Part shown: in pieces, positions 448 through 45,691 of the stretch
How positions within the stretch are numbered: the first letter of the stretch is position 1
Layout of the letters: each line of letters begins with the position of its first letter
NCBI GenBank assembly: GCA_018826255.1
Contig: JAHJZO010000029.1
Span: 1-54,587, forward strand
Reading direction: 5' to 3'
From: Patescibacteria group bacterium
Lineage (GTDB): Bacteria; Patescibacteriota; Minisyncoccia; UBA10092
DNA length: 54,587 nt
The notes under the pieces: generated by a model
The model's input: only the letters and a program-made list of their open reading frames with translations
Told to the model about the DNA's origin: nothing
Database searches by the model: none
Translations under genes and position numbers: made by a program

Positions 448-535
448 ATTTCTAACATTCTTGACTTAACTGGCGGGATGTATTAGATTATTGCAGAGTT
501 TTATTACGGAAAATAAAGAAACGGGAGGAAAAGAG

Positions 536-1183
536 ATGATCTTTGACAATGTGAAGAAAGCAGTTTTTATCGGCGCGCACACCGATGACGAAATGGTTGC
601 CGCCGGAACTTTGAGAAAACTCGTTAAAAATGGCGTTAAAGTTGATGTATTGGCATTCTCCTGTGCTCCAATTCCCGGAAAATCACAGGAAGACACAGAA
701 AGAATTCTTGGACGAGAATTTGCAAAAGCAATGAAAGCAATCGGCGTCGCTTCATTAGAAAACTGGCCACCAATGGACTTTGACCCACGCTCTTTTTCTA
801 GTGGAGAAGACGAAATTCGGCAAATTCTCTATGATTATACCGTTAAAGAGAAGCCGGATATCGCTTTTGTTTTGTCGCCGGAAGACGACCATCAAAGCCA
901 CGCGATGGTTGGTAAATTAGCCGAACGCGTAATGAAAAATAGGGTTCCATTCGTATTAAGGTGTCATTATCCGTGGAATTTCATTAATCCCGGCCGGCGT
1001 AATTTTTTCGTTAAACTAACGCAGGATGAATTCGAGGCAAAGATTGCGGTTATCCGCGCTTATAAATCTCAACATTTCCGCTATGATTATGAGAATCTTT
1101 ACACAGCGCTCGCGAGAGTTGATGGTTTGGCCACAAAAAATGAATTAGCGGAGACCTTTGAAATTACTTATCTTATGGCGTAA
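536..1183 (+). CDS. PIG-L/LmbE-family N-acetyl-sugar deacetylase
   Basis: AHTDDE and DDHQSH metal-binding motifs. ATG at 536 follows GGGAGGAAAAG; the track ORF starts at an upstream TTG (491). Confidence 0.75.
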
Positions 1184-1200: not shown

Positions 1201-1989
1201 ATGGTTAACGCAAAAGAAATCAGCAACTTTTTAGGCACAACAACGATTGTGGTGGGTGATTCGAAAAAAGTTGTTTATAAAATCTCTAAGATTATTCCCG
1301 GCAAAGTTGGCACATTGTCATTTTGTAAATATGAAGACGGTAGAGCCAAAGGGTTAATCAGTAGGTCGCGCTCTTCAATAATTATTTGCTCTTCACAAAT
1401 ATCGCTTTTCGTTTCAGATTTTATAGGCAAAACTTTTATTTTAGTTCCGCAGCCACGGCTGGCTTTTATGAAAGCGGCAAACGAATTTTTTCCATGGAGA
1501 GATACTCCGGGAATCCATCCAACTGCCGTTATTTCAAACGCTGAAATAGGCAAAAATGTTAGAATTGGAGCAGGTACGGTTATCGGCGGCGAAGGTTTTG
1601 GTTATATGCCCGATGAAAATGGCGAGTTAATTCAATTCCCGCATATTGGCGGGGTAATTATTGAGGACAATGTTGAAATCGGCGTCAATGTCTGCATCGA
1701 CCGAGGCGCTTTAGGCGATACGATTATCGGACGGGGGACAAAGATTGATAATCTGGTTCATGTGGCCCATAACGTTAAAATCGGCAAAAATTGCCAGATT
1801 ATCTGCCTGGTCGGCATCGGAGGCAGTGTGGAAATTGGAGACAATTCTTTCGTCGGCATTTCCGCCTGTATCAGAAATCAGATAAAAATCGGTAAAAATG
1901 CCGTAATCGGCATGGGAGCGGTGGTTGTAAAAAACGTTCCTGACAATATGACAGTCGCGGGTAATCCCGCAAACCCTATTCCCAAATAG
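1201..1989 (+). CDS. LpxD-like left-handed beta-helix N-acyltransferase (hexapeptide repeats)
   Basis: GFGY...VEIG...[30 protein letters not shown] closely follows the LpxD core pattern. AGGAGGG RBS upstream. Confidence 0.7.
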
Positions 1990-2037: not shown

Positions 2038-2739
2038 ATGAAAACGACAATAATTATTCCAACGTATAATGAAAGAGAAAATATAGAGTGTCTTATTGAA
2101 GAGATTTTTTTATTATTGCCAGAAATCAATATTTTGGTTGTTGACGATAATAGCCCTGATGGCACTGCAAGCGCAGTAAAAAAACTCATGGCCAAGTTTT
2201 CCAATCTTTCAATTTTGGGAAGGCCGATAAAAAATGGTTTAGGCGGGGCTTATATTGAAGGATTTAAAAAAGTACTAACTGATTCAGACATTAAAAATAT
2301 TGTAATGATGGATGGAGATTTTTCTCATAATCCGAAATATTTACCCCAACTAATTGCCGAAGCAAAAAATTACAGCTTAGTTGTTGGTTCCCGCTATATC
2401 ATGGGCGGCGGCATCGCCAAATGGGAATTATGGCGGAGAATTCTAAGCGCCGGCGGAAATTTTTATGTCCGGAGCTTATTAGGAAAACAGGTTCACGATT
2501 GGACGGGAGGTTTTAATTGCATCAAAGCCGATTATTTGCGAAAAGTGAATCTGGATAAAATCGATTTATCCGGCTATGCTTTTATAATGGGAATTAAATA
2601 TTTTCTTATTAAAGCCGGAGCCAGCGCTAAAGAAATTCCGATTATCTTTGAGGCCCGTCGCGGCGGAGAGTCAAAATTATCGCATCATATTATAAGCGAA
2701 GGAATTATCGCGCCATGGAAAATGATCTTAAAAAGATAA
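2038..2739 (+). CDS. GT2 polyprenol-phosphate glycosyltransferase (Dpm1/GtrB/CsbB-like)
   Basis: IIIPTYNERENI, VVDDNSPDGT and MDGDFSHNPKYL motifs. ATG at 2038 lies inside track ORF 2029..2739. Confidence 0.8.
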   Translation: MKTTIIIPTYNERENIECLIEEIFLLLPEINILVVDDNSPDGTASAVKKLMAKFSNLSILGRPIKNGLGGAYIEGFKKVLTDSDIKNIVMMDGDFSHNPKYLPQLIAEAKNYSLVVGSRYIMGGGIAKWELWRRILSAGGNFYVRSLLGKQVHDWTGGFNCIKADYLRKVNLDKIDLSGYAFIMGIKYFLIKAGASAKEIPIIFEARRGGESKLSHHIISEGIIAPWKMILKR

Positions 2740-5081
2740 ATTTTTTTAAAAGGAACTATCCGGTAATTCTTCTGGCAGTTTTATCTCTATTGCTGTTTGG
2801 CCGGATTTTATTTTCCGATAGACTTTTTCCCGGATTTGATCCCCTTTTGATTTTTTATCCCTATTCATTTCATTTTTTCCACTTGCAAAGTTTTTGGACT
2901 TCCGGAATATTAAGCGGATTCAATATTGGCGCGACGCCGGCTACTTTTGCCGGTAATTGGATTTACTATTTTTTTGCCAGTGGCATTGGATTCAAATTTT
3001 TTGACTTTATCACTTTTTATAATATTCTGATTTTCTTTTATTTTTTTCTAACGCTTTCTTTCTCATATCTTTCGGCGAGAGCTTTAGGTTTTGATAAATG
3101 GGTCGCAACTCTGGTTGCTTCCGTTTATATTTTTAGCGCCTATAATTTAAGTTGGATGGTGAATATTGTCACGGCGGCGTCACTTTTTATTTTTCCTGCT
3201 ATTATTTATTTTTTGCTTAAGTTCAAAGAACACCATAAGTGGATTTGGCTTTTTTTAGGAGGACTTGTATTAGGGTCCGGCCTGATAATGGCACATCCCC
3301 AATTTGCTTTAATAGCGGTTTTTGGCGGATTTTTATTTTCGTTATTTTTAACTTTTGAATCGGACTTCAAAAAACCTAAATGGATTTTTCTCGTTGCTTT
3401 TTTAGCGATAAGTTTGATTGGATTAGCATTGGCGGCGTTTCAATTAATCCCTGAATATCAAACAGTTCTGTTAACTCAAAGGGGCGAGGCGCTCAGTTTT
3501 TCAGCATCTCAGGAGTGCGCTTTAATCCCGTTGGATTTTGTCAGATATTTTATCCCGAATTTCAATTTTTTAGTTAGTTGCGAATCTCTTTTATACATGG
3601 GAGTTTTACCTCTAATTCTGGCGATTTTGGCAATTTTTTACTCCAGAACTGAAAAAAAGCGTATTTTTTTCTGGATGTTTTTATTGGTGTTTTCTATTTT
3701 ATTTTCCGTTAAATATTCTCCATTGGCTTGGATTTTTCATCAACTTCCGATTTGGCGAAGTGTCAGATCGCCGGGCCATTTTTTAATGCTTTCCGATTTT
3801 GCCTTGGCTGTTTTAGCCGGATTCGGTTTTAATTGGGTTTTAGAAAATAAAGAAAAGTTTAAAGAATCAAAAATATATAGGTGGATTAAAGGGCTTTTTT
3901 TCGGGGGGTTAGCAATAATCTTGGCTATAAACATCGCAAGTTTTTTTAAAAACAAATTTATAAAATTAGCGACAGATTATTTTGACAAGTACTATTATCA
4001 GAAAACCATCGGCTTGCCTTTAGAAAATTACCATCGCTCTATAGAAAACCTTATTTCCAGTAATTTTTATAATTTCAGTTTTTTAAATAAAGATTTTGCG
4101 ATTCCATTTATTCTAACAGTGTTAGCGTTTTTGGTTTTATATTTTATTTACAAATTTAATAAAACAGCGCTTTTTTACGCCGTTATTCTTAGTGGTTTTA
4201 TTTGGACAGTTTCCAGTCCTATGATTTCATCCGGTTTAACAAGGGATTTTTTCAAAGAAACCGAAATCATCGGATTTTTAAAGGATAAAAAATCGCCACT
4301 TCGTATTTATAGCTTACTGCCAGGCCTATCCACTTATCAATTATTGGCCTTAACTTATCCCGGCGTTACGGAATCCGACCAGAATGAATTTTTTAAAACA
4401 ATGCTTCCGCCTAATTTGAATATTGTTTACGGCTTGGATTCTATAGACGGCTACGATGCTTCTATGCCACGGCGGACAGCAAGAATCCTCGCCGAACTTT
4501 TGAGCGAACGCGCCACGATTGGAAATAAAATTGCGGAAGCTAGATTAAAACCGGAAGAAAAAATAAAAATCTTTGAAAGTCGCAAAAACCTACTTTCAAT
4601 GATGAATGTCAAATATGTGATTTCAGCTTATCCGCTTGATGAAAAATTTTTTAAAAAAGTTTTTGAGATTAAAACAACACGCTTTGAGGTTCCAGTTTAT
4701 ATTTATGAAAATAAAAATGTTTTGCCAAGATTTTATTTCGCGAAAACGGTAAATTCAGTTGAATCCGATGAAATGAAGGTTTTGAACGAAATTTTGGCCC
4801 CGGATATTAATTTCGGAGCCATAACGTTTATAGAATGCGGCGACAATTGCGAGGGCGTTTCTTTAGGAAAAATTATTGACTATGAATATAAAAACGGCTA
4901 TTTGCGGATAAATACTGAAAGTCAAATTGGCGGCTGGCTAGTATTCAGCGAGTCATATGACAATAATTGGCAAGCTCTTATAAACGGCGCGGAAGATTCT
5001 ATTTACAGAGCTAATTATATTTATCAAGCGGTTCAAGTCCCGGCCGGGGGAAATACTGTTGAATTTATTTACAAACCATGA
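2715..5081 (+). CDS. YfhO-family polytopic membrane glycosyltransferase (GT-C-like), paralog 1
   Basis: 788 aa with many hydrophobic spans. C-terminal NNWQALINGAEDSIYRANYIYQAVQVPAGGNTVEFIYKP is typical of YfhO. Overlaps the upstream GT2 gene by 25 nt. Confidence 0.7.
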   Translation: MENDLKKINFFKRNYPVILLAVLSLLLFGRILFSDRLFPGFDPLLIFYPYSFHFFHLQSFWTSGILSGFNIGATPATFAGNWIYYFFASGIGFKFFDFITFYNILIFFYFFLTLSFSYLSARALGFDKWVATLVASVYIFSAYNLSWMVNIVTAASLFIFPAIIYFLLKFKEHHKWIWLFLGGLVLGSGLIMAHPQFALIAVFGGFLFSLFLTFESDFKKPKWIFLVAFLAISLIGLALAAFQLIPEYQTVLLTQRGEALSFSASQECALIPLDFVRYFIPNFNFLVSCESLLYMGVLPLILAILAIFYSRTEKKRIFFWMFLLVFSILFSVKYSPLAWIFHQLPIWRSVRSPGHFLMLSDFALAVLAGFGFNWVLENKEKFKESKIYRWIKGLFFGGLAIILAINIASFFKNKFIKLATDYFDKYYYQKTIGLPLENYHRSIENLISSNFYNFSFLNKDFAIPFILTVLAFLVLYFIYKFNKTALFYAVILSGFIWTVSSPMISSGLTRDFFKETEIIGFLKDKKSPLRIYSLLPGLSTYQLLALTYPGVTESDQNEFFKTMLPPNLNIVYGLDSIDGYDASMPRRTARILAELLSERATIGNKIAEARLKPEEKIKIFESRKNLLSMMNVKYVISAYPLDEKFFKKVFEIKTTRFEVPVYIYENKNVLPRFYFAKTVNSVESDEMKVLNEILAPDINFGAITFIECGDNCEGVSLGKIIDYEYKNGYLRINTESQIGGWLVFSESYDNNWQALINGAEDSIYRANYIYQAVQVPAGGNTVEFIYKP

Positions 5082-9826: not shown

Positions 9827-10989
9827 GAATTCTATTTATTTTAGACGAGTTTTTGCCGGAAAATAACGGTGGCGCCGCCAATATTGCTTTCGGGCTGGCA
9901 AAGGGGATGATAAGGCTCGATCATGATTTATTGGTATTAACAGCAACTTATAATCCGGAAAAAGTTGGCGATATCGAAATTGAGGGCGTTAAAATAAAAA
10001 GAATTTTAGCATATTCTTTCGGACGTTTGCGAAACTTCAAAAATCTTAAAAATCGGGGGATTTTAAATGAATCAGAAAAGATTATAAGGGAGTATCATCC
10101 GGATGTGATTCATATCCACACTTTGCATCACAGATTTTCGTATGGCATTATCGGATTGGCGAAAAAACTTTCTAAAGCTGTTTTTCTCACCCTTCATGAC
10201 GCGCAAACAGTTTTTAATGGAAAATTGTTTCCTAAAAATGATTATAAAATCACTTGGTTTGATAATTTAAAAAAGGATAAACTTGGTTATAATCCTCTGC
10301 AGAAGTTTTTTATTAAAAAGGCGCTGAAAAATGCCGATAAACTTTTTGCAGTTAGCAATGCTTTAAAAAAAGCGCTTGAAGCTAATGGCGCCGGTGATAT
10401 AACGGTAATTCATAATGGAATTAACTTTAATGAGTGGCCAATTGATGAAATTCAGGGAAACAATATTCTTTTTATCGGCAGGGTAGATGAAGCAAAAGGG
10501 GCAAATGTTTTAATTAAAATTATGAGGGCTATTAATAGTAAGATACCAGGCGCCAATCTTATAATTGTTGGCGATGAAAATTTTAAAGCAGGGGATAATA
10601 AAAATATAAAAATACTTTCGTGGCAATACGATAGGATTGAAGTTAAAAAAATTTTTGCCAAAGCTAAAGTAGTCGTTGTCCCGTCGCTTTATTTAGACCC
10701 GTTTCCAACGGTTAATCTTGAGGCGATGGCGGCAGGCCGGCCCGTTGTAGGAACGTGTTTTGGCGGAACGCCGGAAGTTGTAGTTGATAACGAAACGGGC
10801 CATATTGTTAATCCGTACGACGAAAAAAAATTGATTGAAAAAATTGTTGACTTACTAGAAAATCATGACAAGGCAAAATTATTTGGCTCTAACGGCAGAA
10901 AAAGAATAGAAAAATTTTTCAGTTTGGAAAAGCAAATCCAAGAGACACTTACGATTTATAATAAATCGCTAATGAAAGAAAAGCAGTAA
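9823..10989 (+). CDS. GT4 (GT-B) glycosyltransferase
   Basis: DPFPTVNLEAMAAGRPVVGT motif. 388 aa. Confidence 0.8.
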   Translation: MRILFILDEFLPENNGGAANIAFGLAKGMIRLDHDLLVLTATYNPEKVGDIEIEGVKIKRILAYSFGRLRNFKNLKNRGILNESEKIIREYHPDVIHIHTLHHRFSYGIIGLAKKLSKAVFLTLHDAQTVFNGKLFPKNDYKITWFDNLKKDKLGYNPLQKFFIKKALKNADKLFAVSNALKKALEANGAGDITVIHNGINFNEWPIDEIQGNNILFIGRVDEAKGANVLIKIMRAINSKIPGANLIIVGDENFKAGDNKNIKILSWQYDRIEVKKIFAKAKVVVVPSLYLDPFPTVNLEAMAAGRPVVGTCFGGTPEVVVDNETGHIVNPYDEKKLIEKIVDLLENHDKAKLFGSNGRKRIEKFFSLEKQIQETLTIYNKSLMKEKQ

Positions 10990-12196
10990 AAGTTCTGGCG
11001 ATAACGCGAGCCAGAATTAAGCCGATGAGACCGTAAAGAGGAGTTAGAATTGTCATCACCGAGATCTGAAAAATAGGAGAGACAATATTAAACCAATACA
11101 ATTTTTTTATTTTTTTATGAGCCGTTAAAGCAGGAATTATAAAAGTTGCGGGCGTACTTAAAATTGAAATGACGAAAATCTGGGACAGGAAAACAGAATC
11201 CATGTAGCGGGGGAAAAATATACTGTAAAAAAGCGGCGCTAAAATTATATAAGCCACAACAATCACTAAAGTGAAAACCGTTAGAATAATAATTTTTCGT
11301 AGCATTGTTTTTTTCAATTCTTTTTCGCTTCTTTCTGAAAATTTCGGCAATGCTAAATCCGGAAGACCTTTGAGGAGGCCTTTAATTTGTTCCGGCGGAG
11401 CTATGGCGAATGTATAATTGGCAAGATTTGCAGGCCCCAAAAAATGAAAAGCTAAAAATCGGTCAAGATAAGAAGCGATAACTGAAACAATGTTAATAAT
11501 ACTTAAATGTTTCGCATAAGCCATAATTCCCTCATCTTCCCCACTATTAGCGGGTTTTATTTTCATTTTGGTTTTAATGAAAAAGAAAGCGTTGGGGATA
11601 AGATTAGCGAGCAGATATGCAATTACTAAATGAAGAATATTTTTAGTCAGGAAAATTACCGTTATTAAAACTGCGGCAATAAATATTTGACCGGCCACCG
11701 CGTAATAAGCTGAAGTTTTAAATTCCCTTTTACCTATAAGATAAGCATTGTAAATCTGGAAACTGTTGAGCAGGGGGATGAATACCGCTCCGATAAAAAA
11801 AGCCGTTGCCAACATTAAATTTCCGTTATAAAAATAGTAACCCCCGATAATCAAGGCGGCTAAAGTCCCTAAAATTCCGTATTTTAATTTTTTCTTTAAT
11901 CCCAAACTTAGTGAATTTTCAAATCCACGACTGACGGATTGGATAACAGCTGTGTCCATCCCCGGCAAGGCGAAAATCCCAAGAACCGAAATCCATGCCA
12001 AAATATAACTGTATGTTCCGTAAATTTCTTTTGGTAATAAACGCGCAAAGAAAAAAGCCAGAGCAAAATTGACCGCGATAGAAATAAAATTTCCGAAAGT
12101 CAAAAAAGACCCGCCTTTTAAAATATAAGATAGATTTATTTCGAGAAAATCAGAGATTTTATTGAGCAAATTCGCAACACATTTTCTTGGAAACAT
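10949..12196 (-). CDS. Wzx-like oligosaccharide flippase (MOP/Polysacc_synt family)
   Basis: 415 aa polytopic protein whose N-terminal region is typical of Wzx. Convergent 41-nt overlap with the GT4 gene. Confidence 0.65.
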   Translation of the reverse strand: MFPRKCVANLLNKISDFLEINLSYILKGGSFLTFGNFISIAVNFALAFFFARLLPKEIYGTYSYILAWISVLGIFALPGMDTAVIQSVSRGFENSLSLGLKKKLKYGILGTLAALIIGGYYFYNGNLMLATAFFIGAVFIPLLNSFQIYNAYLIGKREFKTSAYYAVAGQIFIAAVLITVIFLTKNILHLVIAYLLANLIPNAFFFIKTKMKIKPANSGEDEGIMAYAKHLSIINIVSVIASYLDRFLAFHFLGPANLANYTFAIAPPEQIKGLLKGLPDLALPKFSERSEKELKKTMLRKIIILTVFTLVIVVAYIILAPLFYSIFFPRYMDSVFLSQIFVISILSTPATFIIPALTAHKKIKKLYWFNIVSPIFQISVMTILTPLYGLIGLILARVIARTFTAFLSLAIYYKS

Positions 12197-13136: not shown

Positions 13137-15596
13137 ATGTTACAATATTTATATAAAATAATAAATCAAAAAATCATTTGGGGTTTAATGATATTTTGCT
13201 TATTTTTTATTGGGCTTGGCACAATCCTCTGGCCCGTTTTAAGCGGGCAGAAAATATTTAATGACTACTATGTGACGAACTATGCCGTTGGCCAGACCGG
13301 CTATAATTTTTATAAAGATTTCGGCGATAGCTTGAGGCAGGGGCATTTGCAACTTTGGCTATCAAGCTATATGGGGGGCTTCCCCGTATATCTAACGCAA
13401 GCGGGCTTTTTTAATCCCATCGGGATGATTCTTTTTAGGTTTTTTGACTATATTTTTGCCTACAATTGGCTGACTTTTTTAAATTTCCTGTTTGCGGGAC
13501 TGGCAATGTATTGGTTTATAAGAAATTTAAAATTATCAAAATTAGCCGCTATTTTAGGAGGATTTGCTTGGGCGCTTTCTTTTAATAATATCCAATATGG
13601 GTCCATGCTGATTTTTAGTAATCTTTATTTCTTTATTCCGTTGTTTTTTGGCGCAATTCTAAAATTGTCAAGAGGGAATAAAAAATATCTTATTTTGGGC
13701 AGTTTGATCTCTGCCTATGGTTTAATAGCAGGTTTTACAACCTTAGTTTTTTACACGTTTATCACAGGCTTAGCTTGGGCTTTGTTTTTAGATTGGCCAA
13801 AATTTCTTGGAAAGACACTTCGCAATTATATTTTTATTTCTTTGATCGGAATAATCTTAGCGAGTATTTGGCTTTTGCCGGTTTTGAATTATTTGCCGCT
13901 TACCTTGCGGGGAGACGCGATAAGTTCAATAAATTTTTATGATTACTTAAAAATTGGCGATATTTTAAGATTTTTTTATCCTTTTATTCAATTGCCGGGA
14001 TTTGGCGGTTTTTCACTTTTAAGCGGCGTAGCCAATCTTTATGTCGGCATTATCCCGTTTTTATTGGCAATTATAGCTTTTTTTCTGTGGAAAAGGAACA
14101 AAATGATTGCATTTTGGTTAGGGCTTTTCATTTTTGCGTTTTCAATGCGACTTTGGTTTTTTCCGGTGTTCCAATGGCTTCAGTATTTGCCTTTATTCAA
14201 TAAATTCAGAGCGCCTTTCCATTGGTACAGTTTGGCATTTTTTTCTTTATCAGTGCTTTCTGCCTATGGTTTGGATTATTTAAAAGATATTAAAGAAACA
14301 GGGTGGTTCAAGAAGTTTATAAAAATTTTAGAAATTTTCGCGGTTTTAAATATTGCAATTGTTCTGATAATTAATACGGCAATAAAATTTTTTCGTATAA
14401 ATATTTTAAATACCATTTTTGAATATTTTGATAAATATTTATATTCAATCGCCAAAAAAAATCCGATTGATTATTATCATCAAATTATAACGCAGGTTTT
14501 TGATAAAAGCGCTCAAACTTTTTCTTTCTCTAATTACCATTTTTTAATTTCTTTTGTGTTCGTTTTAATAGGCATTTCGATTTTTGTTTTGTATCGGCGG
14601 GATTATATAAGTTTTGAAAAATTTAGAATATTGGCGGTAGCGATTGCAATTCTAAATTTGGTCTTTATCTGGCAGGGATATTATAATTTTACTTCCAAAA
14701 ATTTAATAACCAATCCGCCGGATACAGTTCAATTCATTAAAAAGCAAAAAGAGTCAGATAATTTTAGAGTTTTCAGATTTTATCCGCCGGAAATGTATAA
14801 GCAATTTGGACTTTATGATTTAAAAAATCCTTTGGATTACGATATAAAAACTTTGGGATTACAAATTAATCCCTATTGGATTGATGGGCTCGGCGGAGGA
14901 GAGCCGTTTAGGTCACAGAGAATTTCCGAAGTTCTTGATGAAATCGGTTATGAAGTTTCATCTATGTATGGTCCAGTTTGGATTAAATTCAATGATATTT
15001 CTCTTAACGACAAAACCTCCCGCTTTTCCTCTCCTCAAAACCTAAACCTCATGTCCATGCTTAATATCAAATACGTCTTTTCTTCATTTAAATTACTCAA
15101 CCTGAAACTTATTTATGAAACCACAGCCACGGAAAAAAACATTCCGGTATATGTCTACGAAAATCCCAACGCTATGCCAAGAATATATTTTGCCAATAGT
15201 GTTAAATATATTGACTCTCAGAATGCGTTTGAGGAGCTATTGAAAGTTAAGGATTTTCATGAGATGACGTTGATTGAAGCGACGAAATCCGACCGAAGTC
15301 CGACATCTGGGGATCTCGATGTCGGACTTCAAGAAGTGTCGGATTTTGATATGATAGAATTTAAATCAGAATCAGTAAAAATCAAAACTTCCGGCGATGG
15401 TGGATGGTTAATATATAGTGATGCTAATTTGCCGACCTGGGAAGCGTATATAGACGGCCAAAAAACAGACATTTACACAGCCAACTATCTGTTCAAGTCC
15501 ATATTTGTTCCGGAAGGGGAACATGAAGTGATATTTAAATATCCGGGTTTGTGGGGGCAGTTTAAATATGCGTTCGAAAGTATTTTTGAAAAATAG
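13137..15596 (+). CDS. YfhO-family polytopic membrane glycosyltransferase, paralog 2 (A)
   Basis: 819 aa multi-TM protein. C-terminus WEAYIDGQKTDIYTANYLFKSIFVPEGEHEVIFKYPG. Paralog of 16457..18856. Confidence 0.7.
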   Translation: MLQYLYKIINQKIIWGLMIFCLFFIGLGTILWPVLSGQKIFNDYYVTNYAVGQTGYNFYKDFGDSLRQGHLQLWLSSYMGGFPVYLTQAGFFNPIGMILFRFFDYIFAYNWLTFLNFLFAGLAMYWFIRNLKLSKLAAILGGFAWALSFNNIQYGSMLIFSNLYFFIPLFFGAILKLSRGNKKYLILGSLISAYGLIAGFTTLVFYTFITGLAWALFLDWPKFLGKTLRNYIFISLIGIILASIWLLPVLNYLPLTLRGDAISSINFYDYLKIGDILRFFYPFIQLPGFGGFSLLSGVANLYVGIIPFLLAIIAFFLWKRNKMIAFWLGLFIFAFSMRLWFFPVFQWLQYLPLFNKFRAPFHWYSLAFFSLSVLSAYGLDYLKDIKETGWFKKFIKILEIFAVLNIAIVLIINTAIKFFRINILNTIFEYFDKYLYSIAKKNPIDYYHQIITQVFDKSAQTFSFSNYHFLISFVFVLIGISIFVLYRRDYISFEKFRILAVAIAILNLVFIWQGYYNFTSKNLITNPPDTVQFIKKQKESDNFRVFRFYPPEMYKQFGLYDLKNPLDYDIKTLGLQINPYWIDGLGGGEPFRSQRISEVLDEIGYEVSSMYGPVWIKFNDISLNDKTSRFSSPQNLNLMSMLNIKYVFSSFKLLNLKLIYETTATEKNIPVYVYENPNAMPRIYFANSVKYIDSQNAFEELLKVKDFHEMTLIEATKSDRSPTSGDLDVGLQEVSDFDMIEFKSESVKIKTSGDGGWLIYSDANLPTWEAYIDGQKTDIYTANYLFKSIFVPEGEHEVIFKYPGLWGQFKYAFESIFEK
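15285..15346. repeat. nested in-frame palindrome inside the variable cassette of YfhO paralog A
   Basis: Inner arms GAAGTCCGACAT (15295-15306) / ATGTCGGACTTC (15319-15330). Outer arms AAATCCGAC (15285-15293) / GTCGGATTT (15338-15346). Confidence 0.8.
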
Positions 15597-15602
15597 ATAT
15601 TT

Positions 15603-16454
15603 ATGAAAAAAACAGAATTTTGTCCTATTTGTCGCAAAAAAAATCCAAGCGAATTTGATCATAAAAATGAATTTACTATATGGAAATGTTCCGGTTGTGA
15701 TTTATTATGGACACCAGATGTAAGTGAGGATATTTTAAGAGAATTTTATTCAAAGTCATATTTTAAAAGTCAGCATCATATTTTCGGTTATAGTAACTAT
15801 ATCGAAGATGAAGAAACTCTTCGTATTAATGCTCGCTACATATTATCCGAATTTCCGGAATTCAAAAATCGTTTACCTAAAATGCTTGATATCGGATGTG
15901 CTTACGGTTTTTTATTAGATGAGGCCAGGAAGTTGGGTTGGGGAACAGAAGGTCTGGAATTTAGCACTGAGGCAACGAACTATGCAGTCAATAAATTAAA
16001 TTTAAATGTATCTACTGGCTCTATTATGCAAGCCAATTTTCCTGAAAATAGTTTTGACATTGTTACAATGATAGGTGTTATAGAGCATCTAGCCGATCCT
16101 ATAGCCGCCATTCGCAAGATAAATAAAATATTAAAACTCGGCGGTTACCTTGCCATTACCACTATTAACACCAAGGGATTCGTGAGGTTATTTGATTTAA
16201 AGCCGCCAGAACATACTTTTTATTTTTCTGCCAAAAATTTATCTTTATTATTAAAAACGGAAAATTTTAAAGTAATGAAATCTCTTCCTTATTGGTGCTT
16301 TTATAATTTAAATGAGGCCTTGGATAGAGCTTTTAGATTGATTTTTAAATCTAGTAAAAGAATCGAGGAATTTTTAGGAAAATTCCCTTTTTTGAAATAT
16401 CCAGTAAAAGTGCCAACCAATGAAATGTTTGTATTGGCCCGAAAGATAAAATAA
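15603..16454 (+). CDS. class I SAM methyltransferase with N-terminal Zn-ribbon
   Basis: CPICRKK...CSGCDLLW and MLDIGCAYGFLL. Sits between the two YfhO paralogs. Confidence 0.75.
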   Translation: MKKTEFCPICRKKNPSEFDHKNEFTIWKCSGCDLLWTPDVSEDILREFYSKSYFKSQHHIFGYSNYIEDEETLRINARYILSEFPEFKNRLPKMLDIGCAYGFLLDEARKLGWGTEGLEFSTEATNYAVNKLNLNVSTGSIMQANFPENSFDIVTMIGVIEHLADPIAAIRKINKILKLGGYLAITTINTKGFVRLFDLKPPEHTFYFSAKNLSLLLKTENFKVMKSLPYWCFYNLNEALDRAFRLIFKSSKRIEEFLGKFPFLKYPVKVPTNEMFVLARKIK

Positions 16455-16456
16455 AT

Positions 16457-18856
16457 ATGAAAGTTATTTTTTTATTTTTAATTTGCTTGCTTGTGATTTT
16501 TGGGCCAATTTTATTTGGCGATAAAGTTATTGATGATTTTTTCGGTCTTGATCTGGCTCAATATAAATTTTTAACAGATTTTGGCGATAATTTGAAACAA
16601 AATTTGACACAACTTTGGTGGCCGGATTATCTCGGGGGTTTTCCGATTTATTTAACTCAAACCGGCCTTTTTACTCCTTTAGTTTTTATTTTATATAAAT
16701 TCTTTAGTGGTTTCGCAGTTTACAATTGGCTAACCTTTCTTAATTTCCTGATCGGAGGGCTTGCAATGTATTGGTTTGGTAGAAATTTATCGCTTTCAAA
16801 GATTGCTTCAGTTATTGTTGGCTTAACCTACGTTTTATCCCAAAATAATTTATATTGGGGTCCAACTTTAGTTTTCAGCAATGTTTATCCATTTATCCCT
16901 CTGTTTTTTCTGGCATTATTGAAAATATCAAGAAATGAAAAATTATGGTTTATTTGGGGGGGCTTGATTTCTGCTTATGGATTAGCGGCTGCAGAAATAC
17001 AAATCGTTTTTTACGTATTTGTTATAGGATTTTTTTGGGCTTTATTTTTATTTTGGCAATCAAAAAATCTAAAACCGATTTGGGGATATTTTAGCATTGG
17101 CATTGCCGGAACAATTCTGGCAAGTTTTTGGCTTTTGCCGGTTTTTAATTATCTGAAGTTAACCACTCGGAGCGGAGCTCTAAGCTTTGCCGATTTGACC
17201 TATGACTTTATGAGAATCGCTGACCCTTTGCGATTTTTCTACCCCTATATCCAGTTGCCGCAATTTACCGGTTTAGCGAGTTTAGGCCTCGTTCCCAATT
17301 ACTATATCGGCGCATTTGTTTTCTTTTTGGCAACGGCGGCGCTCTTTCTGGTTGGGAAGAATAAACTTATTGCTTTTTGGGCCGGTGTTGCCACCTTCGC
17401 CTTGGTGGTTAGAATTAAATGGACGGGGATTTTTTGGTTGCTTCATTTTTTACCCGGCTTTGACCGTTTCCGAGGAGTTTTTCATTGGGCATATATAAGC
17501 TCGTTTGCTTTGGCGCTTCTTGCCGGTTTCGCCGTGGATAATATGGAGCAGATTAAGGAATCAAAATATTTTAAAAAATTTGTTAACGCGCTGAAAATTT
17601 TTGGATGGACAAATATTATTTTAGTTGCAGTCATATTTTTAACCAGTTTGTTTCGTGCCAGAATCTTAAATAAAATTTTCCAATTCTTTGATACAAAGAT
17701 TTATCAGACAACAAGGCAATTTCCCTTAGAACATTACCATAATGTCATTACTTCGGAATTTGATAAATTTTTAAACGCTTTTAGCTTAAGCAATTATCAT
17801 TTTCTTATTTCATTTTTGAGCATTTTAATCGCAGTATTAATTTTTATTTTGTATCAAAGAAATAAAATTACTTTTGATAATTTCAAAAAATCAGCGTTTG
17901 TATTCACGTTCTTAAATTTGGTTTTAATCTGGCAAGGTTATTACAGTTTTATCCCGCAGAATAAAATCACCAATTATCCCGATACGGTAACTTTCATAAA
18001 AAATTACTATCATGGTGAAGAAAAATACAGATTTTTCAGATTTTATCCGCCGGAATCCTATCAAGAATTCGGAGTTTTCAATGTTAAGGATTGGTCTGAC
18101 TATAAATTAAAAACCTTAGAATCAAATATAGGCGTTTATTTTGATATGGATACTTTTGGCGGACTGGAGCCATTTATGTCGGCCCGCATTGCCGATATTT
18201 TTGATGAAATAGGATTTGAGAGGCCTACGGCGATTTCAGGCGAACCTTGGCTTCGCTCTACGAAGTTGTCTTTAACCGACAAAACCTCCCGCTTTTCCTC
18301 TCCTCAAAACCTAAATCTCATGTCCATGCTCAACATCAAATACGTCTTTTCTTCATTTAAATTACTCAACCTAAAATTAGTCTACGAAACCACAGCCACC
18401 GAAAAAAACATTCCGGTATATGTTTACGAAAATCCCGATGCTATGCCAAGGATATATTTTGCCAAGGAGGTTAAATATATTGATTCAGAAAGCGCTTTTG
18501 GCGAGCTATTAAAAGTTAAGGATTTTCATGAGGTGACGTTGATTGAATGCGAAAGAAATTGTCCCAAAATATGGATTTCCGACTTCAAAAATTCCCCGAA
18601 GTCGGAAATCAATATTTTCGAATCGCAACTTATTAAAATCAAAACTTCCGGCGATGGCGGATGGTTAATATACAGTGATGCCAATCTGCCTACTTGGGAG
18701 GCGTATATAGACGGCCAAAAAACGGATATTTACACAGCTAACTATTTATTTAAGTCCGTGTTTGTTCCGGAAGGGGGACATGAAGTGATATTCAAGTATC
18801 CCGGGTTGTGGGAACAAGATAAAGCGGCGCTCAAGCGCTTAATTTTTCGTTACTAA
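16457..18856 (+). CDS. YfhO-family polytopic membrane glycosyltransferase, paralog 3 (B)
   Basis: 799 aa. Colinear with paralog A and near-identical in two C-terminal tracts. Confidence 0.7.
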   Translation: MKVIFLFLICLLVIFGPILFGDKVIDDFFGLDLAQYKFLTDFGDNLKQNLTQLWWPDYLGGFPIYLTQTGLFTPLVFILYKFFSGFAVYNWLTFLNFLIGGLAMYWFGRNLSLSKIASVIVGLTYVLSQNNLYWGPTLVFSNVYPFIPLFFLALLKISRNEKLWFIWGGLISAYGLAAAEIQIVFYVFVIGFFWALFLFWQSKNLKPIWGYFSIGIAGTILASFWLLPVFNYLKLTTRSGALSFADLTYDFMRIADPLRFFYPYIQLPQFTGLASLGLVPNYYIGAFVFFLATAALFLVGKNKLIAFWAGVATFALVVRIKWTGIFWLLHFLPGFDRFRGVFHWAYISSFALALLAGFAVDNMEQIKESKYFKKFVNALKIFGWTNIILVAVIFLTSLFRARILNKIFQFFDTKIYQTTRQFPLEHYHNVITSEFDKFLNAFSLSNYHFLISFLSILIAVLIFILYQRNKITFDNFKKSAFVFTFLNLVLIWQGYYSFIPQNKITNYPDTVTFIKNYYHGEEKYRFFRFYPPESYQEFGVFNVKDWSDYKLKTLESNIGVYFDMDTFGGLEPFMSARIADIFDEIGFERPTAISGEPWLRSTKLSLTDKTSRFSSPQNLNLMSMLNIKYVFSSFKLLNLKLVYETTATEKNIPVYVYENPDAMPRIYFAKEVKYIDSESAFGELLKVKDFHEVTLIECERNCPKIWISDFKNSPKSEINIFESQLIKIKTSGDGGWLIYSDANLPTWEAYIDGQKTDIYTANYLFKSVFVPEGGHEVIFKYPGLWEQDKAALKRLIFRY
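18574..18610. repeat. in-frame 13-bp-stem palindrome inside the variable cassette of YfhO paralog B
   Basis: GATTTCCGACTTC (18574-18586), 11-nt loop, GAAGTCGGAAATC (18598-18610). Shares the TCCGAC/GTCGGA core with the paralog A palindrome. Confidence 0.8.
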
Positions 18857-19641: not shown

Positions 19642-21297
19642 TCATTTGGGACCGACGGTAAAAACATATAGGCCTTGAATGTCCATGATAGGAGAGACGT
19701 TTTTCATATTTTTTGCCAATAGTTCTTGCCGTATTTTTTCAACGTCAGATTTATTTTCGGCAATTAAGAAAGAATAAAATGGATACTCGGAACGATTTCT
19801 AAACCACCAAAAATCCACCAGCAAGTCATGGCTATTCGCAAAATCAATTTTTATCATTCCAAGATAATATTCAAAGTTAAATGTCGGAAACTGCGATTGC
19901 CAGATCCGATTTTTAGGAATAATTCTAAAAGCCATTTTTTCTTGGTTCGGAAAAAAAGTTTGAATTGCTTTGCTGAATTCAATTACTTCTTTTGGTGGAA
20001 CATTATTTGGCCATTCTTTCACATAACTCCAAGTATTAGAAAACTGATATGTCCACAACGCCATGATGATTAAAATCAGGAACCCGAATAAAAATCTTTC
20101 TTTTTGTCCCAGTGATTTCTTTTGCTGAAAAATTTCCAAAACAACAATAGTTGAAGTCCCGATGAGCAACCCCCAAAACGCGGCGGTTAAAACGCCCTGA
20201 TAAGGCCAGCCTCCGGTAGCATTGACAAAAAATGGCTGGATAATGGCGGCAACCGCCAAAATGACAATGATTTTGAAAAAATAATGATTTAAATTTAATT
20301 TTGTTCTCAATTTCCATAAAATTCCGATAATTAAAACAGCACTTCCCAATGTGGTGATTGTTTTTTTGAAAAAATAAAAAGTTTTTACGCTTGTCATCGT
20401 AACAAAAGGTCCCGTTAAACCAACGATAAAATTTTTAACGCCCCTGAATGTTCTCTCAGTATAAATATAACAAAAATCGCTTATCATATTATGCCAGCCC
20501 AAATACCATGTATTTTGGATAATTTGCAACATGAATCCTAAAATTGGCGCCGAAGCGAAAATCAGCCACTTTTTCCAAAGGAATTTTTTTAAAACAAAAA
20601 TATCAAATAAAATAAGATAGGCAAATATATAAAAAGTAGCGTCGTAGGAAGAAAGAGACAATATCAAATAGGCGAACCAGATGTATAGATTATACTTTTT
20701 GTATTTTTCAGGAATATTAAAATTTTGCCAAGCTTGAACGCTTAAATAAAGAATTAAAAAAATAAATAAAATAGTCCATGACTGGAAAGCGGAATCAGCA
20801 TAATTTAAAAAAGTAACTGAAAAACCATAATAAAAAACCGCAATGGTAGCCGTTGCCTTGTTTGAAACCGATTTGATAAACCAATAAAAAAATCCTAAAG
20901 CCAAAAGAGAAAGGAAAATAGAGAAAAATCTAAATAGAAATCTTTCTGTAATTCCGATTTTAGTAAGAATTGCATAGGGAGCAAGGAAAAATGGGGGATA
21001 ATGTGTGTAATGAATAGGGCCGCGAGTTAAAGAACCATCCATTGTGTCAATCGGGCGATTCCTGAATTCCGGTTCGTCCAAATAATGAATAAGTTTACTG
21101 TAAGGTTGCGGTATAAATAAAAAATAATTTTTGGCAAGCCCATCTTTTGCCCAATATTGGCTGGACATTAAAATTTGAGCCGAACCAAAGCCCCAACCAT
21201 CCCAACCGTTTTCATCCATTGCTTTAATACTCAAATAAGAACCCAAAATCAAAATAATTATTAAAATCGGCAGATATTTTTTCACAAAATCAATCAT
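19642..21297 (-). CDS. large polytopic membrane protein of unknown family (candidate GT-C transferase/polymerase)
   Basis: 551 aa, more than 10 hydrophobic spans, long first loop with acidic/aromatic residues (DENGWDGWGF). No family motif recognised by eye. Confidence 0.35.
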   Translation of the reverse strand: MIDFVKKYLPILIIILILGSYLSIKAMDENGWDGWGFGSAQILMSSQYWAKDGLAKNYFLFIPQPYSKLIHYLDEPEFRNRPIDTMDGSLTRGPIHYTHYPPFFLAPYAILTKIGITERFLFRFFSIFLSLLALGFFYWFIKSVSNKATATIAVFYYGFSVTFLNYADSAFQSWTILFIFLILYLSVQAWQNFNIPEKYKKYNLYIWFAYLILSLSSYDATFYIFAYLILFDIFVLKKFLWKKWLIFASAPILGFMLQIIQNTWYLGWHNMISDFCYIYTERTFRGVKNFIVGLTGPFVTMTSVKTFYFFKKTITTLGSAVLIIGILWKLRTKLNLNHYFFKIIVILAVAAIIQPFFVNATGGWPYQGVLTAAFWGLLIGTSTIVVLEIFQQKKSLGQKERFLFGFLILIIMALWTYQFSNTWSYVKEWPNNVPPKEVIEFSKAIQTFFPNQEKMAFRIIPKNRIWQSQFPTFNFEYYLGMIKIDFANSHDLLVDFWWFRNRSEYPFYSFLIAENKSDVEKIRQELLAKNMKNVSPIMDIQGLYVFTVGPK

Positions 21298-22981: not shown

Positions 22982-23006
22982 AAATGCCCGCATTACGCGG
23001 GCATTT
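22982..23006. terminator. bidirectional hairpin terminator between convergent genes
   Basis: AAATGCCCGC-ATTAC-GCGGGCATTT. Confidence 0.7.
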
Positions 23007-23706
23007 AAATTATTCTGGCTAAATTAATTATGGTTTTTCCGATGAGAAAAACATTTTTCCAATTGATAACATTTGATTTTCCGTATACTCTTTCTTGATT
23101 ACAGAAGGGGACCTCCACATATGAAATTTTTTTCTTAACCAATTGAATCAGTATCTCTGCCATATAAGCGGGGCTGTCGGTGGTCATTGAAACCGTTTTC
23201 AATATATCGCGTTTAAAAAAACATGGGCCGTTAAAATATTTCAGATGTAAGCCGAAAAGAGCATTAAATGTCATAGTATAACTTCGTGACAACATTGAAC
23301 GAAAAAACGTGCGCTGTTGAGGATTGGCGACATAAGGAATGATGACATCGGTTTTCCCGATTTGTTCAAAAATTTTTTGTATACTTTCCAAAATTATCTG
23401 GTTATCTCCCGGAAACCAGCCGACATAATCTTTAACGGCGGCGCGGATTCCCGTCCTGATATTGTACCCCAATCCTTTTGGCTTGGGGTTGGACATCACT
23501 TTAATGCATCTGTTGTTGAGTGACAGTTCGGCGGCAACTTTTTCCGTTTCATCCGTTGAGCCGTCATTTATAATAATTATTTCATAATCGGAAAGTTCTT
23601 GATTTTCCAAAGCCAATAAAACATTTTGAATCGTTTTTTCAATGTTACCGGCTTCGTTTAAAGCGGGGATAATTATTGACACGGAATTATTCATGTCTTT
23701 AATCAT
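23005..23706 (-). CDS. GT2 polyprenol-phosphate glycosyltransferase-like (paralog of 32614..33333)
   Basis: VSIIIPALNEAGNIEKT, IIIINDGSTDET. Colinear similarity with the 32614 GT2. Confidence 0.75.
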   Translation of the reverse strand: MIKDMNNSVSIIIPALNEAGNIEKTIQNVLLALENQELSDYEIIIINDGSTDETEKVAAELSLNNRCIKVMSNPKPKGLGYNIRTGIRAAVKDYVGWFPGDNQIILESIQKIFEQIGKTDVIIPYVANPQQRTFFRSMLSRSYTMTFNALFGLHLKYFNGPCFFKRDILKTVSMTTDSPAYMAEILIQLVKKKISYVEVPFCNQERVYGKSNVINWKNVFLIGKTIINLARII

Positions 23707-32613: not shown

Positions 32614-33333
32614 ATGAATAAATCTATTTCAATAATTATTCCGGCGTATAACGAGGAAACAAAATTAAAACCGACAGTTGATTCGGTTTTGGATCGCCTG
32701 GAAAATAACGCAATTTCCGATTTTGAGATTATTATTTTCAATGACGCTTCAACCGACAGGACGGGCGAAGTCGCCGATGATTTGGCGATGCAATTTTCTC
32801 AAGTTAAGGTGGTTCATAATGCCAAGAATATGAATCTTGGATTTAACATTGTCAGAGGTTTCCAATTGGCAACCAAAGAGTATGCCGGATTCGTTCCGGG
32901 TGATAACGAAACTGCTCCCGAGGCGCTGGATAATATTTTTCAGGCCATAGGAAAAGCGGATATTGTCATTCCTTACATACAAAATCCCGAAGTCAGAATC
33001 TGGGGCAGGCGGATTCTTTCAAAAACTTATATTGCGATAATAAATACGGCTTTCGGATTAAAAATACGATATTACAACGGTATGTGTTATTTCAAAACCG
33101 AAATGGTAAAAAAAGTCACGGTTTCTACTCACGGCTTTGCGTACATGACCGAAATATTAGTCAAACTTTTAAAATCAGGCGCTACTTTTGTTGAAGTGCC
33201 GATGATAAACAGAGCAAGAGAAAGAGGAGCAACCAAAGCGTTTAGGATTAAGAACATTGCAAGTGTTTTCAAAACGTTTTTAACTCTTTTCTGGGAAGTC
33301 CAGATTTTAAGAAAACGAATAAATCTGTCTTGA
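32614..33333 (+). CDS. GT2 polyprenol-phosphate glycosyltransferase-like
   Basis: ISIIIPAYNEE, IIIFNDASTDRT. Paralog of 23005..23706. Confidence 0.75.
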   Translation: MNKSISIIIPAYNEETKLKPTVDSVLDRLENNAISDFEIIIFNDASTDRTGEVADDLAMQFSQVKVVHNAKNMNLGFNIVRGFQLATKEYAGFVPGDNETAPEALDNIFQAIGKADIVIPYIQNPEVRIWGRRILSKTYIAIINTAFGLKIRYYNGMCYFKTEMVKKVTVSTHGFAYMTEILVKLLKSGATFVEVPMINRARERGATKAFRIKNIASVFKTFLTLFWEVQILRKRINLS

Positions 33334-39722: not shown

Positions 39723-39725
39723 ATT

Positions 39726-42942: not shown

Positions 42943-43010
42943 CAATGATAGAAGTGCATAAACTGCATGATTTGGCGGTTTTTATAATTAACTTGGTTAA
43001 AATAAATAAA

Positions 43011-45055: not shown

Positions 45056-45691
45056 TTGATTTTTAACAATTCGACAGAAAGAGAGGTTGCTATAGTCGAT
45101 GAGGCCATCGGCTATGTTCGGGATTACAAAATTGTGATCATCAAATCAACCGTTATCCCGGGTACAACCGATGCGCTTCAGATTAAATATTCTCAGCACA
45201 AAATTTTATTTTGTCCGGAGTTTTTAACCGAAAAAACAGCACATGAAAATTTTCAAAACCCCAAAATTAAAATTGTTGGTGATACGCTAAAAAGTAATTC
45301 AGTCGCTCTTGCGGTGCGCGGGCTTCTACCCGAGGCGAAGTTTAATGCGATTATGCCGGCAATGGCCGCTGAACTTTTTAAGTATTTTAGAAACAGTTAT
45401 CTGGCAACAAAAAATTCGTTTTTCAACCAGATTTATGATTTGTGCCAAATAACCGGCATTAACTATTCTTTCATAAAAGATTGCGCCGAAGCGGATCCGT
45501 GGATTGGGCCGGAACATCTCGACCCATGGCATGGCGGTTTTCGCGGTTTCAATGGAAAGTGTTTGCCGAAAGATACGGAAGCTCTGCTGAAATTTGCCGA
45601 TGGATACGGTATAGATATTAGTGTTTTAAGAGAAGTTGTGAAATACAACTCTTTACTTCTTGAGTCGCAAAACATTAAAAAAGACAGTTAA
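45056..45691 (+). pseudogene. UDP-glucose/GDP-mannose dehydrogenase-family fragment lacking the N-terminal Rossmann start and the C-terminal UDP-binding domain
   Basis: IIKSTVIPGTT, FCPEFLTEKTA and FNGKCLPKD (catalytic Cys) align to about residues 90-295 of E. coli Ugd. No GxGxxG. Only a TTG start and no RBS. Confidence 0.55.

Follow-up and report, generated by a model that had tools for sequence, protein, structure and literature searches.

The 54,587-nt stretch of DNA analysed here (the window) is contig JAHJZO010000029.1 of a Patescibacteria group bacterium (GenBank assembly GCA_018826255.1), and near its start two overlapping genes, GT2_1 and Y1, encode a predicted polyprenyl-phosphate sugar synthase and a YfhO-family GT-C glycosyltransferase that would act together in a transmembrane glycosylation route. 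GT2_1, lying peripherally on the cytoplasmic face, would load polyprenyl phosphate with a single sugar taken from a nucleotide sugar; the lipid-phosphate-linked sugar would then be flipped, the local candidate being a Wzx-like protein and the alternative a GtrA-like protein encoded on contig 47 of the genome; and Y1 would pass the sugar to an acceptor outside the membrane via the acidic residue D42 in its first external loop. Three further polytopic proteins of the window, Y2, Y3 and P551, would be transferases of the same kind, and the acceptor would be a Wzx/Wzy-type glycan primed by a phosphoglycosyltransferase of the same gene island, or a Thr-rich protein, rather than a teichoic acid. We give this reading as a whole a probability of about 0.75; its reaction, sugar, flippase and acceptor are inferred from fold, residues and gene context.

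Folds, signature residues, gene coupling, gene fusions and the missing teichoic-acid genes were computed here. The GT2 genes that the first-pass annotation had placed at 2038, 23005 (minus strand) and 32614 are present as open reading frames, and their products, GT2_1, GT2_2 and GT2_3, each match the Pfam profile Glycos_transf_2 at E~1e-26. GT2_1, for which an alternative TTG start lies at 2029, matches over residues 1-221 the catalytic domain of Pyrococcus DPMS (PDB 5mlz) with E=2.9e-31. In an alignment of the GT2s with the DPMS sequence and with relatives, read at the signature positions defined in the DPMS structure paper (PMC5526996), 21 of 25 positions were identical in GT2_1, which keeps Y10-N11-E12, D39, D89-x-D91 (as DGD), H94, G122 and W127, all of the lipid-phosphate binders R117, R131 and S135, and an intact acceptor loop R202-x-x-G-E-S-K208 including G205. 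No hydrophobic segment of transmembrane (TM) length was found in GT2_1, GT2_2 or GT2_3, which stop at 233-239 aa and, being without C-terminal TM helices, are not GtrB/CsbB/ArnC-like in architecture. Of the earlier label "Dpm1/GtrB-like", the Dpm1 half is supported for GT2_1 by the DPMS match and the signature residues, and the GtrB half is imprecise for all three, the architecture being that of human DPM1 or streptococcal GacI. A DPMS variant without its TM domain is still membrane-bound and fully active (PMC5526996). Orthologs of GT2_1 in relatives share 65-74% identity with it. Taking these observations together, sequence comparison supports the prediction that GT2_1 is a Dpm1/DPMS-type polyprenyl-phosphate glycosyltransferase.

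The YfhO-like polytopic proteins proposed at 2715, 13137 and 16457 (Y1, Y2 and Y3) are likewise encoded by open reading frames at these positions. Y1 and Y2 are 28% identical over their full length, Y2 and Y3 54%, and Y3 scored 744.7 bits against the A1 profile. A database search with Y1 returned 113 homologs, nearly all with a precomputed YfhO domain, among them P0041 (35% identical, E=7e-118), which matches the YfhO model over positions 30-596 with 72 bits, and P0070 (24% identity over 99% of Y1, E=6e-12 against 5.8e9 sequences), which matches it over positions 11-607 with 111 bits. The alignments with these two proteins cover 95-99% of Y1, extending YfhO homology over its full length including the membrane domain. 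Sequence and profile searches of the PDB with Y1 gave no match, there being no YfhO relative in the PDB by sequence, and since the corresponding searches with P551 were empty too, fold comparison was needed for both proteins. The AlphaFold model of Y1, built from a 66-sequence alignment, reached a predicted local distance difference test score (pLDDT) of 93.5 and a predicted template modelling score (pTM) of 0.93, and its top 35 Foldseek matches in the PDB were all GT-C enzymes at probability 1.0 (AftD, ArnT, STT3, PglB, AglB, Pmt, Emb and AftA), with a TM-score against ArnT of 0.55-0.57 (normalised to ArnT). D42, just after TM1, is conserved in 58 of 66 homologs (88%), and Y2 has ND and Y3 DD one to two residues upstream of the aligned position; further conserved positions of Y1 are W61, G68, R122, R256, R351 and R530. 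From the Lys/Arg-rich N-terminus, D42 is predicted to face outside, and an acidic residue in an external loop is the expected catalytic acid of GT-C enzymes (PMC8035078); the conserved extracytoplasmic acidic residue that the first-pass annotation proposed to look for was thus found, its outside location being a prediction. Fold and transitive homology together support the assignment of Y1-Y3 as YfhO-family GT-C enzymes.

The genes of GT2_1 and Y1 overlap by 25 nt (the Y1 ATG lies at 2715 and the GT2_1 stop ends at 2739) and, as had been noted before, form the only adjacent and translationally overlapped GT2/YfhO pair in the window. Related arrangements were found in other assemblies. On the 65-kb metagenome contig L004, a GT2_1 ortholog (74% identity) is followed by a methyltransferase gene and then a Y1 ortholog, while the 171-kb contig L006 has the order GT2, epimerase, methyltransferase, YfhO, methyltransferase, YfhO. 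In L022 (GCA_040961035.1), a YfhO::Wzx fusion gene shares 11 nt with the gene of a 253-aa GT2 whose identity to GT2_1 is 40%; synthase, transferase and flippase are contiguous there, contained in two genes. In L023 the gene of a GT2_2/GT2_3-like GT2 has a 4-nt overlap with a bona fide YfhO gene, and in L007 (GCA_041643095.1) a GT2 is fused to the Y1 ortholog in one 1071-aa protein (P0038). YfhO::Wzx fusion proteins were found six times (P0058, P0059, P0062, P0068, P0069 and P0071). Coupling between a small Dpm1-like GT2 and YfhO recurs at all evolutionary distances, down to 21-24% identity, and counts in favour of the proposed route.

P551, which the first-pass annotation listed as an unclassified 551-aa polytopic protein, is confirmed as an open reading frame, lies on the minus strand and can now be assigned a GT-C fold. 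No Pfam, NCBIfam or PDB sequence or profile match was found for it, and its AlphaFold model (pLDDT 90.5, pTM 0.90) gave 29 top PDB matches in Foldseek that were all GT-C enzymes (STT3/AglB, ALG12, ALG9, ArnT, AftA/B, DPY19 and ALG3), the best being STT3/AglB at E~9e-7, with TM-scores of 0.56 for ALG12 and 0.50 for ArnT. The pair W32-D33 after TM1, which puts an acidic residue in the predicted first external loop, is invariant in 46 homologs, and a weak PMT_2 match is present in 3 of 99 homologs; all named homologs are from the Candidate Phyla Radiation (CPR) except one labelled Nanoarchaeota. On its modelled fold, P551 is a fourth GT-C enzyme in the window, of a family undescribed in Pfam.

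Several observations weigh against the proposed route. GT2_1 differs from DPMS by the substitutions Q93S, F177Y and K178A, at positions that contact the metal or the mannose (PMC5526996), and its sugar therefore need not be mannose. A membrane-anchor partner of the GacJ/DUF2304 type was not found, the DUF2304 search returning sub-threshold noise only. The Pfam YfhO model (PF09586; model length 835, gathering cut-off 28.5 bits) aligns with Y1-Y3 at their C-terminal ends alone, over ~60 residues corresponding to model positions ~760-825, and the profile check suggested by the first-pass annotation succeeded for Y1 (40.2 bits) and Y2 (41.5 bits) and narrowly failed for Y3 (28.3 bits); a profile search of the genome's contigs with the neighbouring stretches added gave 40.6, 35 and 30.2 bits. 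In addition, three genomes of the order (G003, G007 and G011) pair their GT2_1 orthologs (65-70% identity) with an unrelated polytopic protein in place of YfhO, and the GT2/YfhO pairing is thus not obligate. UppS (PF01255) and BacA (PF02673) were not found in this assembly. MraY is present in the genome, indicating that a polyprenyl-phosphate carrier is in use, and among the 11 other genomes of the order 5 carry UppS, two of them congeners; that UppS and BacA are missing despite MraY and about ten polyprenyl-dependent GT-C genes points either to an assembly gap or to scavenging of the carrier lipid. Finally, GT2_2 and GT2_3 are both without D89 and R117, and neither adjoins any GT-C gene in the window.

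This last point bears on the alternative that survives best, one we consider somewhat unlikely, in which only GT2_1 makes a lipid-phosphate-linked sugar, as one donor for several GT-C enzymes, and GT2_2 and GT2_3 are cytoplasmic GT2s that extend a lipid-diphosphate-linked repeat unit (of modified heptose, for example). GT2_2 and GT2_3 are 44% identical to each other and only 22-25% identical to GT2_1. GT2_2 keeps E12, D39, D91, Q93, R131, S135, R202, G205 and S207 and additionally lacks K208, and GT2_3 keeps E12, D39, D91, R131, S135, F177, R202, G205 and K208, so that in each case the first Asp of the DXD motif is missing; in both, the loop before the interface helix is shortened. The best PDB match of GT2_2 is the N-terminal half of a chondroitin synthase, and both genes lie among nucleotide-sugar tailoring genes. 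By contrast, the best full-length match of each protein is DPMS, and the retention of R131, S135, R202 and G205 leaves them with part of the DPMS-type acceptor-loop and lipid-binding set. GT2_4 (53643-54443), a fourth GT2 of the window that had been omitted from the first-pass annotation, served as a negative control and lacks the acceptor-loop set and these four residues, as well as any DPMS match; because it is not Dpm1-like, the earlier count of three Dpm1-like GT2s in the window stands. Moreover, the GT2_2/GT2_3 subfamily is coupled to GT-C genes elsewhere: a GT2_2-like paralog (53% identity) lies directly 3′ of a PMT_2 GT-C gene on contig C13 of the same genome, the L023 gene overlaps YfhO, and L006 contains a GT2-epimerase-PMT-like arrangement. 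In the proposed route, GT2_2 and GT2_3 probably supply other lipid-phosphate-linked sugars, the donor sugar possibly being a modified heptose from the neighbouring cassette at 23.8-38.3 kb. Of the idea of three parallel donors for three YfhO enzymes, GT2_1 as a donor synthase is supported and the one-to-one assignment stays conjectural, GT2_2 and GT2_3 being diverged and, in this window, not adjacent to a GT-C gene.

The Wzx-like gene reported earlier at 10949-12196 is real (Polysacc_synt_3, 2e-14) and lies on the minus strand, which had been left unstated; its product is a candidate flippase for a lipid-linked glycan and/or for lipid-phosphate-linked sugars. With the GtrA-like protein as a second candidate, synthase, flippase and GT-C are all encoded in the genome, as in three-component systems, and in L022 they are contiguous. 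The gene lies divergently beside Y2/Y3 orthologs in G009 and G006, and it is this constant adjacency, with the YfhO::Wzx fusions of several genomes, the occurrence of STT3, PglB and AglB among the fold matches of Y1 and the lack of a GT2 gene adjoining Y2 or Y3, that would fit a different role for the large transferases, in which Y2, Y3 and perhaps Y1 use a Wzx-flipped polyprenyl-diphosphate oligosaccharide and act as oligosaccharyltransferase, ligase or polymerase rather than as single-sugar decorators. We regard this as distinctly unlikely. The L022 fusion gene is itself overlapped by a GT2_1-type synthase gene, as suits three components working with a monophosphate donor; for ligation or polymerisation a Wzy_C protein is already encoded in the island; the donors of every characterised YfhO enzyme are C55-P-monosaccharides (PMC8035078, PMC12041528); and Wzx-type flippases serve monophosphate systems, for example GacK (PMC8035078). 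That the large membrane proteins are structural or transport proteins sharing a helical scaffold, as the 60-residue C-terminal Pfam match and the want of a sequence match to solved GT-C structures might suggest, is most improbable in view of the top 35 fold matches of Y1, which are exclusively GT-C enzymes, the conserved Arg residues and first-loop acidic residue of its homologs, and the conserved coupling and fusion to a lipid-sugar synthase.

For the acceptor, the first-pass annotation had drawn an analogy with teichoic acids, which was not supported. TagF/TagB (PF04464), LtaS (PF00884) and LCP (PF03816) were not found in the 96.8%-complete genome, and control genomes responded to the same searches; teichoic acids are therefore unlikely acceptors, and we rejected them as candidates. 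More likely than teichoic acid are the island's own Wzx/Wzy-type glycan, for which a Bac_transf-type priming enzyme and a Wzy_C protein are encoded, or a Thr-rich peptidoglycan-binding protein (42945-44957). The Wzy_C domain is also found in PglL-type protein O-oligosaccharyltransferases, and the Wzy_C-TPR protein could be a protein-glycosylating enzyme instead of a polymerase or ligase. The Thr-rich protein contains the genome's only 30-residue window with more than 50% Ser+Thr (77%) and is conserved at 48-63% identity in all but two of the order's 11 other genomes (9 of 11), whichever GT-C set they carry; in G003 and G007 its gene shares a contig with the GT2_1 ortholog, 32-38 kb apart. The YfhO-family enzymes PgtC2 and PgfM1 O-glycosylate Ser/Thr-rich disordered regions in streptococci (PMC12041528). 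By analogy, we hypothesize that the Thr-rich protein may be an O-glycosylation acceptor.

Beyond the window, the genome contains five PMT_2 genes (two on C47, two on C10, one of which is cut by the contig end, and one on C13) and two extra Dpm1-like GT2 genes, one after the C13 PMT_2 gene and one on C10 with a DPMS match of 7.7e-20. This brings the totals to about ten GT-C genes and five Dpm1-like GT2 genes, the GT-C genes alone amounting to ~17.6 kb, or ~3.3% of the 0.54-Mb genome (sum of open reading frame lengths). The loci are arranged as a GtrA-like gene adjoining two PMT_2 genes (C47:5958-11416), as a PMT_2 gene, a P551 paralog (C10:6337-8166), a Dpm1-like GT2 gene and a radical-SAM-sized gene (C10:4979-14189), and as a PMT_2 gene followed directly by the GT2_2-like GT2 (C13:2066-4218). 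Across the phylum YfhO-like genes are common, with 66 of 151 sampled genomes carrying them and as many as 8 in a single genome; in the order they are patchy (5 of 12 genomes). In this 12-genome survey, G003 and G011 have high-identity GT2_1 orthologs without any YfhO-like match, G007 has only a 45-codon YfhO-like piece at a contig end, and in G004, G006 and G009 YfhO-like genes coexist with no more than distant relatives of GT2_1. A one-to-one co-occurrence of GT2_1 and YfhO in the order, a check that had been proposed for the GT2/YfhO counts of relatives, is ruled out by these patterns. G009 shares the whole Y2/Y3, Wzx and P551 block; G006 has P551 and Wzx with a single Y3-like gene, and G004 has P551 and Y3-like genes.

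The non-YfhO partners of the GT2_1 orthologs in G003, G007 and G011 form a family of 562-627-aa polytopic proteins with a 'VVNDE' motif after TM1 and a C-terminal soluble domain, and a PMT_2 GT-C gene follows them. In G003 and G007, the junction between the GT2_1 ortholog and the partner is the same 25-nt overlap (..GCGCCATGGAAA..), and in G011 a methyltransferase gene lies between the two. Comparison by hhalign among the YfhO-like profile, the P551 profile and the 566-aa G003 partner yielded probabilities of only 2-15%. From its topology and the 'NDE' motif after TM1, the partner is probably another undescribed GT-C family. These arrangements raise the idea, which we think unlikely, that GT2_1 is a fixed 'socket' and that unrelated GT-C genes are swapped in at one 25-nt junction, giving serotype-like variation of the glycan on a conserved Thr-rich, peptidoglycan-anchored surface protein among related ultra-small episymbionts.

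The mechanism itself is not new. YfhO enzymes characterised so far transfer C55-P-sugars onto teichoic acids or Ser/Thr-rich protein regions (PMC8035078, PMC12041528), and parallel GT-A/GT-C pairs are known from single genomes, three in B. subtilis and three in L. lactis (PMC8035078). Among the multi-component transmembrane glycosylation systems reviewed in PMC8035078, the system of the window would fit particularly variant (b), composed of a cytoplasmic GT-A, a Wzx-type flippase and a GT-C (GacI/J/K/L). In Streptococcus pyogenes, GacI/GacJ/GacK/GacL add the N-acetylglucosamine side chain of the group A carbohydrate and likewise combine a TM-less cytoplasmic GT2, a Wzx-type flippase and a GT-C, there decorating a Wzx/ABC-exported wall glycan (PMC8035078); by contrast, GacL is of the PMT_2 type and Y1 of the YfhO type, and no GacJ-like helper was found here. 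With the CsbB/GtcA/YfhO systems of Bacillus subtilis and Staphylococcus aureus and Lmo2550/GtcA/Lmo1079 of Listeria, which glycosylate lipoteichoic or wall teichoic acid, the window shares a GT2 lipid-phosphate-sugar synthase, a YfhO-family GT-C with an acidic residue in an external loop and a large extracytoplasmic C-terminal domain, and a flippase. Unlike CsbB, however, GT2_1 has no C-terminal TM helices, the local flippase candidate is of the Wzx type with the GtrA-like gene on another contig, no teichoic-acid synthesis genes were found, and Y1-Y3 match the Pfam model at its C-terminal end only.

Streptococcal PgtC2/PgfM1 systems also have a YfhO-family GT-C fed by a GT2 lipid-phosphate-sugar synthase, and their operons combine two YfhO paralogs with an epimerase and act on a Ser/Thr-rich extracytoplasmic protein region of the kind that the island encodes; their GT2s are, however, of the GtrB type with TM helices, and glycosylation of the Thr-rich protein here is a hypothesis. 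The gtrA-gtrB-gtrC serotype-conversion operons of Shigella and Salmonella phages likewise join a conserved synthase gene to a downstream polytopic transferase gene that can be exchanged for an unrelated one, but here there is no prophage context, no adjacent gtrA and no lipopolysaccharide O-antigen as acceptor. The catalytic domain and signature residues of GT2_1 are those of Pyrococcus furiosus DPMS and of human DPM1, the latter likewise TM-less, whereas its three substitutions suggest a different sugar, no DPM2/DPM3-like subunits accompany it and the carrier is bacterial. Of local interest are the undescribed GT-C family, the swappable GT-C partner at a fixed junction and the candidate protein acceptor. 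In the literature library searched, no paper connecting CPR bacteria to YfhO or GT-C enzymes turned up.

The genome (G000, completeness 96.8%) comprises 536,896 bp in 49 contigs, of which the window is contig 1, and belongs to a CPR bacterium whose close protein homologs carry the names Candidatus Azambacteria or Patescibacteria. With its mostly glycan-related genes, the window makes up ~10% of the 0.54 Mb. One surface-glycan island spans 0.5-45 kb, with remnants of IS200-like transposases at its edges (1-420 and 45770-46450), and holds sugar-nucleotide tailoring genes, GT4 and GT2 glycosyltransferases, many S-adenosylmethionine (SAM) methyltransferases and three radical-SAM enzymes besides the Wzx-like flippase, the Bac_transf priming transferase and the Wzy_C-TPR protein. 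A truncated UDP-glucose dehydrogenase gene (45056-45691) stands with the IS200-like remnants at the island edge, and G+C content varies from 33-36% at 12-20 kb (the YfhO paralogs) to 43-46% at 24-32 kb (the heptose cassette); this mosaic and the edge remnants suggest that the island was assembled from modules of different origin. Y2 and Y3 (13137-18856) contain long near-identical C-terminal stretches, such as SRFSSPQNLNLMSMLNIKYVFSSFKLLNLKL and GDGGWLIYSDANLPTWEAYIDGQKTDIYTANYLFKS, that flank a divergent segment, which suggests gene conversion between tandem paralogs.

Upstream of the GT2_1/Y1 pair lie a PIG-L family gene and an LpxD-like gene (491-1989), an order that also precedes the GT2::YfhO fusion gene in L007 (6356-7909). 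The PIG-L protein possibly acts on a sugar or a lipid-linked sugar, and by analogy with ArnD of the Arn pathway the two genes hint at deacetylation of an amino sugar followed by re-acylation. A terminator-like hairpin (1971-1994) and a promoter-like site (1979-2008), both pattern matches only, lie 3′ of the LpxD-like gene. The methyltransferase with a Cys4 ribbon (~285 aa) that separates Y2 and Y3 recurs elsewhere, flanked either by a Dpm1-like GT2 and a GT-C gene or by a pair of YfhO paralogs, with copies in L004 (9120-10004), L006 (9126-10004 and 12394-13173) and L017 (7365-8237) that share 31-37% mutual identity, and it may methylate the lipid-linked sugar before flipping. Coordinates of all features are collected in Table 1.

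Table 1 Features of the window and related loci (positions refer to the window unless another contig or locus is named)
Feature	Position	Strand	Basis
PIG-L family de-N-acetylase	491..1183	+	Pfam PF02585 at 1.2e-14; upstream context gene
LpxD-like hexapeptide-repeat acyltransferase	1201..1989	+	Pfam Hexapep 8e-20, LpxD N-domain 1e-4; context gene
GT2_1, TM-less Dpm1/DPMS-type polyprenyl-phosphate sugar synthase (predicted)	2038..2739	+	233 aa; DPMS match and signature residues
Y1, diverged YfhO-family GT-C, membrane domain and C-terminal beta-rich domain	2715..5081	+	788 aa; Pfam YfhO 40.2 bits; fold
Wzx-like MOP-family flippase	10949..12196	-	Pfam Polysacc_synt_3 2e-14, Polysacc_synt 5e-12
Y2, YfhO-family GT-C paralog	13137..15596	+	819 aa; Pfam YfhO 41.5 bits
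Class I SAM methyltransferase, N-terminal Cys4 ribbon	15603..16454	+	Pfam Methyltransf_23 at 7e-22; between Y2 and Y3
Y3, YfhO-family GT-C paralog	16457..18856	+	799 aa; Pfam YfhO 28.3 bits
P551, GT-C-fold glycosyltransferase (modelled)	19642..21297	-	551 aa; AlphaFold and Foldseek; family absent from Pfam/NCBIfam
GT2_2, small TM-less GT2 of a diverged Dpm1-like subfamily	23005..23706	-	233 aa; best full-length PDB match DPMS, 1.2e-11
GT2_3, GT2_2 paralog	32614..33333	+	239 aa; DPMS 4.3e-18 full length; within heptose-tailoring cassette
Bac_transf-type priming phosphoglycosyltransferase	38385..39722	-	Pfam Bac_transf 3e-54; would start lipid-diphosphate-linked glycan
Wzy_C (O-antigen ligase/polymerase/PglL-type) membrane protein, C-terminal TPR	39708..41978	+	Pfam Wzy_C 1e-21
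Thr-rich secreted protein, poly-Thr linker, C-terminal peptidoglycan-binding domain	42945..44957	+	PG_binding_1 at 602-652; signal anchor
GtrA-like protein	C47:5958-6644		Second flippase candidate in genome
562-627-aa polytopic partner family	L016 8533-10233 (G003); L018 8922-10610 (G007); L017 5482-7365 (G011)		No Pfam match

The prevailing view is that CPR bacteria (Patescibacteria) live attached to host cells, and very little is known of their surface chemistry. With the proposed route, the candidates for the acceptor come down to a Wzx/Wzy glycan or a single conserved protein, Thr-rich and wall-bound, and the route offers testable residues, D42 of Y1 and D33 of P551, together with one gene pair. 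If the exchange of GT-C partners at a fixed GT2_1 junction were true, CPR bacteria would have an equivalent of gtr-type serotype conversion, one that would bear on host attachment or phage evasion.

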